Origin: Kofleriaceae bacterium
Lineage (GTDB): Bacteria; Myxococcota_A; Polyangia; Haliangiales; Haliangiaceae
NCBI GenBank assembly: GCA_041495365.1
Contig: JBGQCL010000007.1
Location: 2,547-66,546 of the forward strand
Direction: 5' to 3'
Length of the DNA stretch: 64,000 bases
Both the position numbers and the translations under genes were made by a program. How positions within the stretch are numbered: the stretch's first letter is position 1; each line of letters starts with the position of its first letter. A model generated the notes under the pieces. It saw only the letters and a list, made by a program, of their open reading frames with translations, made no database searches and was not told the DNA's origin. Below, one piece after another: positions 27,486 through 33,797 of the stretch.

Positions 27486-28694
27486 ATGCGCTCCATGCCA
27501 TGGACCGTCCTGGCCGCTGCCGCCCTCGGGGTGCTCGCCGCGTGCTCGGACGTCCGACCGCGGCCCGACGCCGGCACCACCACGGTGACGGTGCACCCGG
27601 CCGGGATCCTGGACCCCCAGAGTGCCGATTTCCACGGCAAGGAGCTGCAGCGCCTCAACTGGGACTTCGTGGTCTGCGCCGGCTGCCATGGCAGCGATTT
27701 CACGGGAGGCGCCGCCAAGGTGTCCTGCCTGAGCTGCCATGCCGACGGTCCGACCGCGTGCACGACCTGCCACGGTGGCGGCCCGACGAGCAACGCCCAC
27801 GTCATTCACCGCCAGGTCGCCAAGCTCGACTGCAGCGAGTGCCACATCGTCCCGGCGCACTGGAACGACGAGGGCCACATCCTGGTGGGTGGCGTCGCGA
27901 ATCCGGATCCGGTCAAGGTCGTTTTCGGCGCCCGCGCGGGGGTCACCATCACCCCGGGTGATCGCAGCGGCCCACCCACCTACATGAACGGCACGTGCAG
28001 CAACGTGTACTGCCACGGCGCCGTGCTGCACGCCGCCGGCGGCACCGCGACCGCGCCCCGGTGGAACGATCCGACGCCAGCCGGCGCCTGCGATCGCTGC
28101 CACGGCGCCCCGCCGCCCAGCCATGCGCAGAGCAACTGCGCGACCTGCCACCCCGCCACCGCGCCGCACATCGACGGCGTCGTCCAGGTCGGCCGCGGCC
28201 CGGGCTGCTCGGGCTGCCACGGCGACGCGACGTCGCCGGCGCCGCCGATCGACCTGGCGGGCAACACGCAGATCACCGCGATCGGTGTCGGCGCCCACCG
28301 CGCCCACCTCACGGTCCCCACGGGCCTGCGCGGCCCGATCCCGTGCCAGACCTGCCACCTCGTCCCGACCAGCGTCGACGACCCCGGTCATATCGATTCG
28401 CTGCCGCCGGCCGAGGTCGATCCGACGCTGTCGTGGAACCGCACGACCCGGACCTGCGGCACGGCGAACTGCCACATGGCATCGCAGCCGGTGTGGACCG
28501 CCACGGGCGACGTGTTCTGCGGCAGCTGCCACGGCATCCCACCTGCGGGTGGCCTTCACAATCCCACGATGACGCTCGCGAGCTGCGTGAACTGCCACGC
28601 CGGGACCGTCGACGCGTTCGGACAGATCCTCCTCACGACTGGTCCGGGTGGGACGACCAGCAAGCACATGAACGGAGCGGTCGATGTTCAGTGA
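27486..28694 (+). CDS. Multihaem c-type cytochrome lipoprotein (10 CXXCH + 2 CX4CH)
   Basis: Lipobox LAAC. Paired CX4CH...CXXCH motifs (CSNVYCH..CDRCH, CGTANCH..CGSCH), as described for Geobacter-type multihaem proteins. Starts 10 nt after ccoS. Confidence 0.85.
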   Translation: MRSMPWTVLAAAALGVLAACSDVRPRPDAGTTTVTVHPAGILDPQSADFHGKELQRLNWDFVVCAGCHGSDFTGGAAKVSCLSCHADGPTACTTCHGGGPTSNAHVIHRQVAKLDCSECHIVPAHWNDEGHILVGGVANPDPVKVVFGARAGVTITPGDRSGPPTYMNGTCSNVYCHGAVLHAAGGTATAPRWNDPTPAGACDRCHGAPPPSHAQSNCATCHPATAPHIDGVVQVGRGPGCSGCHGDATSPAPPIDLAGNTQITAIGVGAHRAHLTVPTGLRGPIPCQTCHLVPTSVDDPGHIDSLPPAEVDPTLSWNRTTRTCGTANCHMASQPVWTATGDVFCGSCHGIPPAGGLHNPTMTLASCVNCHAGTVDAFGQILLTTGPGGTTSKHMNGAVDVQ

Positions 28695-29376
28695 CCCCTA
28701 CACCTTCCCGTACACCGTGTTCGCGCTCGGCTGCGCCGGGCTCGCCGCGGCGCTGCTGCTCTGGTACCTGATCGCCCGGCCCAGGCTCGGCCGCTCCACG
28801 AAGATCGTGCTGCTGCTCGGGATCGGCGTGCTGTCGCTGGGCACCGCGGCCACCGGCAACGTCGCCGGGTTCAACGCGACCAAGACCCGGACGTTCTGCG
28901 GCGCGTGCCACGTGATGACGCCGTTCAACGAGGATGCGACCAGCGCGGGTTCGACGTCGCTCGCGGCGCGCCACTCGCGCAACGAGGAGTTCGGCAGCGA
29001 GGCCTGCTACATGTGCCACGCCGACTACGGCATGTTCGAGACCGTCGTCACCAAGATGGGTGGCATGCGGCACGTCTACGAGTACGGGGTCCACTTCCGC
29101 CAGCTCAGCCTCGACGAGGCGCTGCCCAGGATCCACATCCGCCGGCCGTTCCCCAACTCGACCTGCATGCGGTGCCACTCGACGGAGAACCCGGGCTGGC
29201 GCCGGGTCGGCGATCACAAGAGCCTGCTCGATCAGGTGCGCGCCGGCGAGGTCAGCTGCGCGAGCAACGGCTGCCACGGCCCCGCGCACCCGTTCGCCCA
29301 GGTCGCGCACATCAAGGCCGAGCAGGCGGAGCAGGCCCGGGCGATCCGGAGCATCGAGAACGGAGGCGCGAAATGA
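28684..29376 (+). CDS. NapC/NirT/NrfH-like membrane-anchored tetrahaem cytochrome (3 CXXCH + 1 CX4CH)
   Basis: N-terminal TM helices, then CGACH, CYMCH, CMRCH and CASNGCH. Size and layout fit a quinol dehydrogenase. Confidence 0.75.
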   Translation: MFSDPYTFPYTVFALGCAGLAAALLLWYLIARPRLGRSTKIVLLLGIGVLSLGTAATGNVAGFNATKTRTFCGACHVMTPFNEDATSAGSTSLAARHSRNEEFGSEACYMCHADYGMFETVVTKMGGMRHVYEYGVHFRQLSLDEALPRIHIRRPFPNSTCMRCHSTENPGWRRVGDHKSLLDQVRAGEVSCASNGCHGPAHPFAQVAHIKAEQAEQARAIRSIENGGAK

Positions 29377-31956: not shown

Positions 31957-33797
31957 AGCGCATCACCATTCCCCGGGTCGATCCCACGGGGGGCTTTGCC
32001 GCCCGCCCCGCCGGCAAAGCCGGCAGGGTCCCCACCCCCCATCTCGCTGCGCTCGATCCCACGGGGGGCTTTGCCGCCCGCCCCGCCGGCAAAGCCGGCA
32101 GGGTCCCCACCCCCCATCTCGCTTCGCTCGCTGCGTGCGCACTCGCGCTGGCCGGCGTCTCGCTCGCCGCCGGCCTGGTCGCGTGCTCCGGCGCCGAGCG
32201 CCATCCCACGCCGCAGAAGGTCCCGCTGACCTGGCGCGAGGTGCGCGACAGCGCCGGCCACACCGCGCACGTCGTCAAGCGCGGCGTGCCGTGCCGCGAC
32301 TGCCACGGCGACGACGGCTTCCAGCCGCCGCCGCTCGAGGTGTGCAGCAAGTGCCACGCCGCGGTCCGCGCGCCGCTCCACCCGGCCGATCCGCTGAACA
32401 AGGTCCGGACGCCCGGGTGCCAGGACTGCCACGGCTTCGGCGCCAAGCTCGACGTGACCCCGACCCACTGCATGCGCTGCCACACCGAGCCGCAGGGCCG
32501 CCATGCTGCGGTCGGCGCGCACAGCAAGCAGAGCTGCCTCGACTGCCACCGCGCCCACGGCGCGCCGACCCTCGACGTCAAGCCGTGCCAGAGCTGCCAC
32601 GCCAGCGAGGCCAACCACCACGCCGGCGCGCGCAGCTGCCTGGACTGCCACCAGATGCACGAGGCCGACGCGGTCGCCGACCAGGGCTGCGCGACCTGCC
32701 ATGCCCGGCAGAAGGGCAAGATCAAGGTCGACGACCACGCGATCACCGCCGGCCACGCCACGTGCACCGGCTGCCACGCGCCGCACCAGTTCGACAAGGC
32801 CCAGACCGTTGCGTGCGCTGCCTGCCACACCAAGCAGCACACGCTCGCCCCGGCCAAGCACGCGGGCTGCACCACCTGCCACGCCCCGCACAAGGGCTCC
32901 GAGCCCAAGCCGTGCACCAGCTGCCACGCCAGGTCGGTCAGTCATCCGCCGGATGGCAAGCGCGGCCCCACCGCGGCGTGCGACGGCTGCCACCCGCCGC
33001 ACACGCTCGCCGCGGGCCAGATCGCGGTCGCGTGCGCGACGTGCCACGACAAGCCGCACCACGCGACCGCGCAGTGCCTCGACTGCCACGCGCCGCACGC
33101 CGCCAAGCCCAAGCTCGACCCGGCGCTGTGCGCCAGGTGCCACGCCCGCGAGTCCGGCTCGTCGGCGGGCAGCGGCCACGCGGCGTGCACGCAGTGCCAC
33201 GCCAGCGCGGCGCACGAGCCGGGCAAGCCACCGCCGGCGTGCGCGAGCTGCCACGCGCCCAAGGCCAGGCAGCTGCGCAAGGGCCACGACACCTGCGCGA
33301 GCTGCCACACCGCGGGACCGCACCAGCCGAAGACCCCGCCGGCGGCGTGCGCGACGTGCCACGCCGCCGAGGCCAAGACCGCCCCGACCGGCCACGCCCG
33401 GTGCGCGAGCTGCCACGAGCCCCACAGCGGCGTGCGCCGCCCCGACAAGACCTGCCAGAGCTGTCACGCCGACAAGGCGGGCCAGGGCCACGGCAAGCGG
33501 GTCGACTGCGCGACCTGCCACCGCCCGCACGGCCCGGGTGGAACGCCCACGCCCCCGGCGTGCACCTCGTGCCACGCCGCCGAGCAGCGGACCGGCCTGC
33601 ACCGGGTCGCCCAGCACGGCACCTGCAACGACTGCCACGGCGCGCACGAGCCGCACCCCGCCGACGATCGCGCGACCTGCCTGCGCTGCCACACGGCGCA
33701 GGTCAAGCACGAGCCCAAGGCGGCGACCTGTGGTTCCTGCCACCCGTTCAGCAGCGGTCCGCACGCCACCACCGCGCCGGCGAGCCGCGGCAAGTGA
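31953..33797 (+). CDS. Giant multihaem c-type cytochrome lipoprotein (27 CXXCH in 614 aa)
   Basis: 27 CXXCH motifs counted, quasi-periodic every ~18-25 aa, often as C..CH.PH. Lipobox LVAC is preceded by two in-frame repeat-element copies. Confidence 0.85.
   Translation: MKRITIPRVDPTGGFAARPAGKAGRVPTPHLAALDPTGGFAARPAGKAGRVPTPHLASLAACALALAGVSLAAGLVACSGAERHPTPQKVPLTWREVRDSAGHTAHVVKRGVPCRDCHGDDGFQPPPLEVCSKCHAAVRAPLHPADPLNKVRTPGCQDCHGFGAKLDVTPTHCMRCHTEPQGRHAAVGAHSKQSCLDCHRAHGAPTLDVKPCQSCHASEANHHAGARSCLDCHQMHEADAVADQGCATCHARQKGKIKVDDHAITAGHATCTGCHAPHQFDKAQTVACAACHTKQHTLAPAKHAGCTTCHAPHKGSEPKPCTSCHARSVSHPPDGKRGPTAACDGCHPPHTLAAGQIAVACATCHDKPHHATAQCLDCHAPHAAKPKLDPALCARCHARESGSSAGSGHAACTQCHASAAHEPGKPPPACASCHAPKARQLRKGHDTCASCHTAGPHQPKTPPAACATCHAAEAKTAPTGHARCASCHEPHSGVRRPDKTCQSCHADKAGQGHGKRVDCATCHRPHGPGGTPTPPACTSCHAAEQRTGLHRVAQHGTCNDCHGAHEPHPADDRATCLRCHTAQVKHEPKAATCGSCHPFSSGPHATTAPASRGK
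31978..32052 (+). repeat. Hairpin repeat family copy E1 (75 nt)
   Basis: TCGATCCCACGGGGGGCTTTGCCGCCCGCCCCGCCGGCAAAGCCGGCAGGGTCCCCACCCCCCATCTCGCTGCGC. 10-bp stem GGCTTTGCCG/CGGCAAAGCC. Confidence 0.9.
32053..32127 (+). repeat. Hairpin repeat family copy E2 (75 nt, tandem to E1, one mismatch)
   Basis: Same sequence as E1 except G>T near the 3' end. Confidence 0.9.

Follow-up and report, generated by a model that had tools for sequence, protein, structure and literature searches.

What is a run of multihaem cytochrome genes doing directly behind the genes of a high-affinity oxygen reductase? The question is raised by a 64,000-nt stretch of a Kofleriaceae bacterium genome (assembly GCA_041495365.1, contig JBGQCL010000007.1, positions 2,547 to 66,546 of the forward strand; hereafter the window), in which six genes, named g1 to g6, follow the maturation genes of a cbb3-type cytochrome c oxidase (cco genes). 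We propose, with a rough probability of 0.5, that the six genes encode a conduit like those of the porin-cytochrome (Pcc) systems, which would lead from the quinol pool of the inner membrane to the cell exterior; the proposal draws on sequence comparison and structure modelling.

Genes were called from the GC content of third codon positions (GC3) by frame, together with stop-to-stop open reading frames (ORFs); the window is 72% GC, and raw ORF lists are noisy. The calls reproduced a six-gene run with overlaps of 4-11 nt, which a preliminary description made from the sequence alone had placed after ccoS. All six genes lie on the forward strand: g1 (27486-28694; 402 aa) with 10 CXXCH and 2 CX4CH motifs, g2 (28684-29376; 230 aa) with 3 CXXCH and 1 CX4CH, g3 (29373-29723; 116 aa) and g4 (29720-30916; 398 aa) with no haem motif, g5 (30913-31956; 347 aa) with 12 CXXCH and 1 CX4CH, and g6 (31953-33797; 614 aa) with 27 CXXCH. 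The ccoS stop lies at 27475, g1 starts 10 nt downstream, and successive genes overlap by 11, 4, 4, 4, and 4 nt. The haem motifs sum to 56 over the module, the same number as counted before; since they are conserved in orthologues, CX4CH sites included, they are not chance occurrences. Lipoprotein calls for g1, g5, and g6 were pattern-based, and the respective lipoboxes (LAAC, VAAC, and LVAC) are kept in orthologues. Pfam and NCBIfam scans of g1-g6 found no catalytic, molybdopterin, or Fe-S subunit, and a known periplasmic enzyme system was ruled out on this ground as the identity of the module.

The product of g4 is predicted to be a signal-peptide-bearing outer-membrane beta-barrel of 18-20 strands without a close solved relative. 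Its AlphaFold2 (AF2) model, built on a 40-sequence alignment (predicted local distance difference test [pLDDT] 74.8, predicted TM-score [pTM] 0.67), shows 20 beta strands after the signal peptide, the first two with low confidence. Among the matches listed by a Foldseek search of the PDB, almost all are membrane beta-barrel proteins, with TM-scores of about 0.4; they include ushers, general porins, MOMP, BamA, OprD, and TOM40, and the top 50 do not include MtrB. No Pfam or NCBIfam family matched g4 at E up to 1, and its profile (alignment A1) found no chain among the PDB sequences. Membership in the MtrB/PioB family was ruled out, as neither PF11854 nor TIGR03509 matched. The protein contains no Cys. 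Its 820 homologues are all annotated 'hypothetical' and come mostly from metagenome-assembled genomes (MAGs) of Kofleriaceae. The family is small and lineage-restricted, because a profile search of 1.8 billion representatives returned 434 clusters at 50% identity; for the distant relatives, the cluster look-up gave only the name 'hypothetical protein'. The barrel-like sequence pattern noticed in the preliminary description is thus matched by a predicted fold of about 20 strands. Its authors had held that a g4 predicted or shown not to be a barrel, together with cytochromes belonging to a known periplasmic enzyme system, would speak against their idea; what emerged was a predicted barrel and cytochromes with no catalytic subunit beside them.

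The neighbor of the barrel gene is g5. Its 13 haem sites and the lipobox Cys18 are invariant among 37 homologues, and it matches PF14522 and PF22113. In profile comparison, its N-terminal part resembles ActA of alternative complex III (ACIII) and c7 cytochromes (E 6e-8 to 3e-6), not MtrA. The MtrA/DmsE family TIGR03508, with a cut-off of 192 bits, scored 15.3 bits for g5 and 25.5 bits for g6, and we ruled out that either protein is an MtrA/DmsE homologue. The AF2 model of g5 (37 sequences; pLDDT 49, pTM 0.35) was too poor for a fold search. In every locus where both genes were detected, g5 adjoins the barrel gene, mostly with a 4-nt overlap. The pairing extends to distant relatives of g4: each of P0261 and P0428 (about 420 aa) overlaps by 4 nt with a following gene for a lipoprotein of 351-352 aa, which has 13 CXXCH and is a full-length g5 homologue (31-34% identity, E 1e-57). 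The distant pair stands alone in one Myxococcota MAG. In another locus (L083, 7564-17263; GCA_054033015.1), it lies between a monohaem cytochrome c gene and an ACIII-like set of c7/ActA-like, molybdopterin-like, 4Fe-4S, and NrfD genes, with H-NOX/HNOBA sensor kinase genes upstream. A g1 homologue (41% identity) also flanks the distant pair in this ACIII-bearing MAG, and the monohaem cytochrome directly upstream of the pair, in L083 as in L084, is of class I. The ACIII-like genes beside the pair in L083 imply that the quinol-side partner is interchangeable. Judging from these gene arrangements, the g4-g5-type pair is probably the older core of the module, present in a two-gene form in other Myxococcota.

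The remaining four proteins complete a parts list that the preliminary description had drawn up correctly: a NapC/NirT-like tetrahaem protein, a protein with two transmembrane (TM) segments, a barrel-like protein, and lipoprotein cytochromes. g2 passes the gathering score of the NapC/NirT family (PF03264, 30.9 versus 24.1 bits), the profile search that had been proposed for it. It aligns to NrfH of D. vulgaris (2J7A_C) across the TM helix and the first haem motif, an invariant CXXCHxM; among 65 orthologues, CXXCHVMxP is conserved to at least 95%. Hydrophobic segments lie at residues 12-30 and 41-59. Scores remained far below the equivalog cut-offs of TIGR03153 (32/134 bits), TIGR02161 (21/311), and NF007906 (13.6/349), covering NrfH, NapC, and TorC. 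By these matches, g2 is a candidate quinol dehydrogenase, namely a membrane-anchored tetrahaem cytochrome of the NrfH/NapC/CymA type. g3 has two hydrophobic (TM) segments, is poorly conserved, contains no Cys, has no His in its TM segments, and matched no Pfam or NCBIfam family; it always accompanies g2, even in rearranged loci. g1 matched TIGR01904 (58.5 bits, cut-off 27) and PF09698 through its CxxxxCH/CxxCH domains; its haem sites are kept in 62 orthologues, and its start agrees with alignment A3. g6 carries one haem site per about 18 aa, matched PF14537, PF14522, and PF09699, and is a candidate long haem wire; in its orthologues, the CXXCH number 25-27 and the lipoprotein signal peptides are short. 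In searches against PDB sequences, g1 and g6 had no close relative, g2 showed weak NrfH similarity, and g5 had short ActA/c7-like similarity only.

How widely is the module spread, and does it reach the cell surface? A genome scan with one genome per species yielded 80 loci, nearly all in MAGs of Kofleriaceae/Haliangiales, Polyangiaceae, Labilithrix, and Byssovorax, together with the cultured Minicystis rosea DSM 24000, where the module occupies about 825.6-833.8 kb of CP016211 (locus L047). By tblastn, at least five of the six genes are present in 61 of the 80 loci, 50 of them colinear. The order is altered in Polyangiaceae and Labilithrix, where g3-g2 are divergent and g1 lies elsewhere; the sets g4-g5(-g6), g2-g3, and g1 stay intact despite the reordering. 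On this comparative evidence, the module appears as a conserved, mobile, and autonomous unit of Polyangia. Directly upstream of g1, 48 of the 80 loci carry a seventh gene, encoding a lipoprotein of about 715 aa with ten CXXCH and a collagen-like GPxG linker. This is a full-length decahaem cytochrome of the OmcA/MtrC family (TIGR03507, 411 bits, cut-off 209; PF22113, 197 bits), exemplified by 5788-7935 of L007, which gave the 411 bits. Nine loci carry a second MtrC-like gene of 971 aa, and in L001 an MtrC-like gene is found downstream of the module. In Shewanella-type conduits, the terminal reductases are surface decahaem cytochromes of this family. The occurrence of such genes in the relatives is a strong argument that the module extends to the cell surface, in keeping with the parallel to porin-cytochrome conduits that had been drawn from the window alone. 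We found no description of the module in Polyangia, Kofleriaceae, or Haliangium in the literature, and the earlier reader had likewise not recognized the arrangement as a described system.

Among known systems, the closest likeness is to Pcc, represented by Geobacter OmbB-OmaB-OmcB and especially by Anaeromyxobacter. A paired porin gene and cytochrome gene is the hallmark of these clusters, and the porins have 18-22 membrane motifs (PMC4245776); the small barrel of g4, with about 20 strands, falls within that range. In Anaeromyxobacter, which belongs to the same phylum as our bacterium, Myxococcota, the two-gene form joins a porin to a 338-344-aa cytochrome with 12-14 haems (PMC4245776). The g4-g5 pair likewise joins a barrel to a cytochrome of about 350 aa with 13 sites, a comparison made by published size and haem description only. 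Lipoprotein multihaem cytochromes within the cluster are a further shared feature. With a barrel of about 20 strands and an adjoining multihaem cytochrome in the range of 5-14 haems, the module fits the published description of Pcc, and from its gene content it probably works like the Mtr and Pcc conduits. Unlike the lipoprotein g5, the Pcc cytochrome is free in the periplasm. The module also goes beyond Pcc in its NrfH-type gene, its 2-TM gene, its 27-haem and 12-haem CX4CH-domain lipoproteins, and, in relatives, its MtrC-family gene.

The logic of Shewanella MtrCAB with CymA is the same, comprising a NapC/NirT quinol dehydrogenase, a barrel with an inserted cytochrome, and lipoprotein cytochromes at the surface. 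A true OmcA/MtrC-family decahaem gene is shared with the relatives of the module, not with the window, and MtrB has 26 strands against about 20 in g4. Compared with NrfH, CymA, and NapC, g2 shares the N-terminal membrane anchor and four haem sites, and CXXCHxM with D. vulgaris NrfH. It differs in having two hydrophobic segments instead of one, a fourth site of the CX4CH type, an obligatory 2-TM partner gene, and neither NrfA nor NapAB. ACIII was ruled out as the identity of the module, as ActB and ActC are found neither in the module nor among the scanned ORFs of the window.

MtoAB/PioAB with CymA(ES-1)/MtoD, and likewise PCC3/PCC4, are trans-envelope cytochrome conduits of cbb3 users, with no reported fusion to a cco operon, unlike the module in the window. 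No homology to MtoA or MtoB was found for the module proteins. PCC3 and PCC4, whose cytochromes are very haem-rich (PCC3 medians of 21 and 34 haems), were proposed for Fe(II) oxidizers; both also encode a 5-TM protein, regarded as a di-haem b protein, in which the motif WX3HX13H occurs twice (PMC5566968). The PCC3 cytochromes resemble the 27-haem g6 in being haem-rich, repetitive, and of low complexity. Membership in PCC3/PCC4 was ruled out, because g3 has only two TM segments without His and the c-type g2 takes the quinol-side role. The EET1-4 clusters of Acidobacteriota and Verrucomicrobiota are, like the module, syntenic sets of porin and multihaem genes divergent from Mtr/Omc, and their hosts, lineages abundant in soil and peat, do not count among the classical metal reducers; the clusters belong to other phyla, Myxococcota are not mentioned, and no cbb3 linkage is reported (bioRxiv 10.64898/2026.05.27.727921). 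The combination of a Shewanella-type surface cytochrome, a Pcc-sized barrel, 13-haem and 27-haem lipoproteins, and an NrfH-type/2-TM pair appears not to have been described previously.

How firm is the link to cbb3? Junctions of at most 10 nt run unbroken from the DsbD_2 gene (23941) in the maturation cluster to the end of g6 (33797), and the 10-nt gap after ccoS makes co-transcription of the module with the cbb3 genes plausible. The ccoI-ccoS-g1 junction is found in the window and in three further loci (L002, L087, L088). In the 59 loci whose upstream sequence extends to 3 kb or more, the fetched flank shows cco genes in nine and none in 50; 16 loci show cco or hemN/hemerythrin genes there. 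In detail, ccoS is followed by the MtrC-like gene in L005, L026, and L033, one or two other genes lie between cco and the module in L007, L013, L020, and L023, and the module precedes hemN-ccoNOP in L044. Genomes of about 10 Mb would by chance show such proximity far less often; the loci are, however, clustered by phylogeny. Universal stress protein (USP) genes lie near the module in 16 loci.

Two close relatives have lost the cco block. L081, whose g4 is 89% identical, has the window flanks (fumarase, DUF4331, flavodoxin). Aligned with the window, its positions 7200-7720 retain scraps of hemN (a 5' remnant), of the hemerythrin gene, and of the last ~100 nt of ccoS before g1, with the joint at 17982|27377. 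In L001, positions 1-450 correspond to the 3' end and stop of the hemerythrin gene fused to position 27355 within a ccoS remnant (joint 18333|27355). The deletions span 9-11 kb of the hemN/hemerythrin/cco block (window region 16321-27486), and in each the final 100-120 nt ahead of g1 remain. Their end-points differ; the block was lost twice independently, and the module was kept. The contiguity with cbb3 is therefore real yet labile, a clade-specific arrangement. The contiguity given in the preliminary description stood; the coupling to the oxidase was overstated.

From these parts, we infer where the proteins lie, in what order and direction electrons pass, and that the module is co-regulated with cbb3, as follows. 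g2 and its 2-TM partner g3 would exchange electrons with (mena)quinol. The haem-dense lipoproteins would relay them across the periplasm, with g6 likely the long wire, and g5, in or at the g4 barrel, would cross the outer membrane. g1 would sit at the surface, in most relatives alongside the OmcA/MtrC-type decahaem lipoprotein. Set behind the cbb3 maturation genes in a low-oxygen run (hemN, hemerythrins, cbb3, USPs), the module would probably be expressed with these genes under O2 scarcity. Flow would most likely be outward, because relatives have the MtrC-type partner, the quinol-side module is of the NrfH (menaquinol) type, and the lifestyle is heterotrophic. The conduit could then supplement high-affinity O2 respiration as an auxiliary sink, with Fe(III)/Mn(IV) minerals, humics, or the like as acceptors. 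The hardware is reversible in principle.

Several points weigh against this scheme. The barrel model of g4 is only moderately confident (pLDDT 74.8), and the insertion of g5 into the barrel is a suggestion by pure analogy. All three soluble-domain cytochromes are lipoproteins, in contrast to the free periplasmic cytochrome inside the barrel of known conduits. No gene of the OmcA/MtrC family (TIGR03507) is present in the 64-kb window. An insertion of 50 aa in the signal peptide of g6 may impair its export. The cco linkage is missing from most loci and was twice lost in close relatives. The direction of flow is not readable from sequence, and a CymA-type gene is also part of the Mto clusters of Fe(II) oxidizers that use cbb3.

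The adjacency to cbb3 keeps inward flow through the same conduit a rival, though a rather doubtful one. This is the second of the two readings offered in the preliminary description. Extracellular donors (for example, minerals with Fe(II), humics in reduced form, cathodes, or other cells) would supply electrons to the periplasmic haems, which would pass them to cbb3, with a microaerobic gain of energy, and via g2 to the quinone pool. Microaerophilic Fe(II) oxidizers do use cbb3, with a CymA-type gene in their Mto clusters. The unbroken junction with the maturation genes in the window and three other loci would fit, as would the nearby cco genes in nine of 59 loci, the monohaem class-I cytochrome c upstream of the distant pair in L083 and L084, and the haem-rich PCC3/PCC4 proposed for Fe(II) oxidizers (PMC5566968). 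However, 48 loci have an OmcA/MtrC-type decahaem gene next to the module, most loci are not linked to cco, and the module outlives the cco deletion in L001 and L081. The OmcA/MtrC family is typical of metal reducers and is not known from Mto and Pio. Since myxobacteria are known to use menaquinone, reduction of the quinone pool by Fe(II) would run uphill. Among the scanned window genes, none was recognized as Cyc2-like or of the MtoA/MtoD type; no search aimed at these was made.

Two further explanations dispense with conduction across the outer membrane. According to one, which the preliminary description had offered as a dedicated quinol-to-cbb3 delivery chain, g2/g3 oxidize quinol and the multihaem proteins feed CcoP/CcoO within the periplasm, replacing bc1 or ACIII. 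The start of g1 only 10 nt past ccoS, the ActA-like N-terminal part of g5 (ActA is the pentahaem subunit of ACIII), and the monohaem CcoP accord with such a chain. So does the finding, in agreement with the earlier reading, that no bc1 or ACIII genes occur among the GC3-supported ORFs scanned in the window; these may, however, sit elsewhere in a genome of about 10 Mb. The chain needs neither a barrel nor an MtrC-type cytochrome and leaves unexplained the conserved outer-membrane barrel, the MtrC/OmcA gene of most relatives, 56 haems for a short hop, and the lipoprotein anchoring of three cytochromes. In 50 of 59 loci no cco genes are visible beside the module, and it persisted through two deletions of cco. 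Because the barrel, the MtrC-type gene, and the independence from cco are unaccounted for, we regard this chain as highly improbable. The other explanation is a haem store anchored in the envelope, working as a redox capacitor or in detoxification of metals, reactive oxygen species, or nitric oxide, with the barrel taking on some other task, for instance lipoprotein export to the surface or passage of solutes. It draws on the lipoprotein nature of all the cytochromes, on the lack of a soluble MtrA-like partner and of a catalytic subunit, and on nearby stress genes (hemerythrins, USPs, Hsp20, and YtfE/RIC in L007). But the barrel and the 13-haem gene are strictly conserved as a pair, mostly with 4-nt overlaps, even in the distant two-gene versions; a quinol-dehydrogenase-type g2 belongs to the unit; and a terminal reductase of the MtrC family is adjacent in most loci. 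A haem store is accordingly unlikely, if less so than the periplasmic chain. The outward Pcc-like conduit is the reading that we prefer.

The insertion in g6 derives from two identical tandem 75-nt elements of the repetitive extragenic palindrome/miniature inverted-repeat transposable element (REP/MITE) kind, at window positions 31978-32127. They lie in frame in the n-region of the signal peptide and lengthen it by 50 aa; the L001 orthologue does not have them. The element is GC-rich and has an internal hairpin (GGCTTTGCCGGC...). A diverged third copy lies at 27138-27228, at the 3' end of ccoI, and a 25-nt fragment lies at 12676-12700 on the reverse strand. L082 has one copy in g6 (3871-3949), and reverse copies follow g2, at the g2/g3 junction, in L081 (9599-9679) and L087 (4001-4049). 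The element was not found in the 80 genome loci.

Are there signals by which the module could be controlled? A conserved 20-nt block, CTGGCACAGCTCGTGAGTAG, occupies 27456-27475 on the forward strand, at the 3' end of ccoS and immediately 5' of g1. It is nearly invariant in the window, L002, L001, and L081 (four relatives at 76-89% identity), and ccoS is non-coding in L001 and L081. As a candidate cis-element, the block could act in internal control. The TGGCAC at 27457, at the start of CTGGCACAGCTCGTGAGTAG, resembles a sigma-54 -24 element and was not accepted as a promoter, as it lacks a proper -12 GC. Over the window, sigma-54 sites numbered 52 against 57 expected. In relatives, 17-18 of 52 loci have sigma-54-like sites ahead of the MtrC-like gene, against a background of 10.5%, an enrichment of about threefold that is suggestive only. 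Near-palindromes of the FNR/CRP type (TTGAT-N4-ATCAA, up to 2 mismatches) numbered 14 in the whole window against 3 expected; all 14 lie within genes, and none falls in the relevant intergenic regions. A scan of 16000-35500 for sigma-70 promoters and intrinsic terminators, uninformative at 72% GC, detected no promoter; its single terminator was antisense, a yield below chance. In 25 loci, sigma-54 enhancer-binding response regulators and histidine kinases follow g6 directly on the opposite strand (for example, L007 13878-20822, L017, L008, and L026). Comparable regulator and kinase genes are found in the window 13-17 kb downstream of g6 (47406-51308).

Upstream of the module, the low-oxygen run of same-strand genes is opened by a hemN-like gene for an O2-independent radical-SAM coproporphyrinogen oxidase (16468-17904; Radical_SAM and HemN_C), adjoined by a HemG-type flavodoxin gene (Flavodoxin_5; 15499-16227, reverse strand). 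A first hemerythrin-domain gene follows (17905-18336; PF01814, 5e-12). The cbb3 cluster comprises ccoN and ccoO fused in one 730-aa ORF (18564-20756; PF00115, 9e-121; PF02433 FixO, 3e-82), ccoP (21007-21672; FixP_N and Cytochrome_CBB3) with a single CXXCH at residue 136, ccoG (21900-23363; Fer4_18 and FixG_C), fixH/ccoH (23360-23809; FixH), a gene for a DsbD_2/CcdA-like membrane thiol-reductant transporter (23941-24639; PF13386, 2.5e-36), ccoI for a Cu-transporting P-type ATPase (24636-27248; E1-E2_ATPase, Hydrolase, ATPase-cat_bd, and HMA), and ccoS/fixS (27245-27475; PF03597, 3e-17). The CcoN, CcoO, CcoP, CcoG, FixH, CcoI, and CcoS domains were thus all matched by Pfam on the same strand. 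The cluster is variant in its ccoN-ccoO fusion, in the one CXXCH of CcoP where two are usual, and in the DsbD_2 gene within the maturation genes; the structural genes ccoNOP are set apart by gaps of 130-250 nt.

Downstream of g6, a second hemerythrin-domain gene (33939-34378, forward strand) is frameshifted near 34185 and is either a pseudogene or an assembly error; its L082 orthologue is intact (146 aa). A hemerythrin gene also follows g6 in L001, L002, L003, L016, L030, and L078. Farther out are two USP genes and the third hemerythrin gene (38772-39350, reverse; 39477-39911 and 52825-53568, forward), so that the neighborhood holds three hemerythrin genes, two USP genes, and Hsp20. Taken together, the flavodoxin, hemN, USP, and hemerythrin genes resemble an island for low oxygen and stress. 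A 1290-aa Ser/Thr kinase gene with AAA_16 (34861-38733) separates the USP gene from the g6/hemerythrin region. It is missing at the matching position in L001, L002, and L082 and is probably an insertion in the lineage of the window.

Porin-cytochrome conduits are a known route of extracellular electron transfer, tied mainly to anaerobic metal reducers and Fe(II) oxidizers, and Polyangia are textbook obligately aerobic soil myxobacteria, predatory or cellulolytic. Of added interest here are a host group regarded as aerobic and a recurring yet labile fusion to the cbb3 operon. It is a speculative further thought that the conduit is a true partner of cbb3, inward or bidirectional, by which O2 would be respired with outside electrons at oxic-anoxic interfaces. 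If so, the donors would be Fe(II) minerals, reduced humics, or even neighboring or prey cells, and the fusion would reflect a single hypoxia-induced unit of outer-membrane conduit and oxidase. The recurring cbb3/hemN/hemerythrin neighbors and the deletion variants make it testable whether extracellular electron transfer is deployed together with high-affinity O2 respiration. With its mixture of Shewanella-type and Geobacter/Anaeromyxobacter-type parts, the module is also relevant to the evolutionary assembly of such conduits. The seven-gene version spans Kofleriaceae, Polyangiaceae, Labilithrix, and Minicystis rosea, groups that are abundant in soil and count as aerobes. Provided that the module is active, these bacteria would form a large overlooked guild in the redox cycling of iron, manganese, and humics in soil, and the conduit would give soil Polyangia a means of surviving hypoxia.

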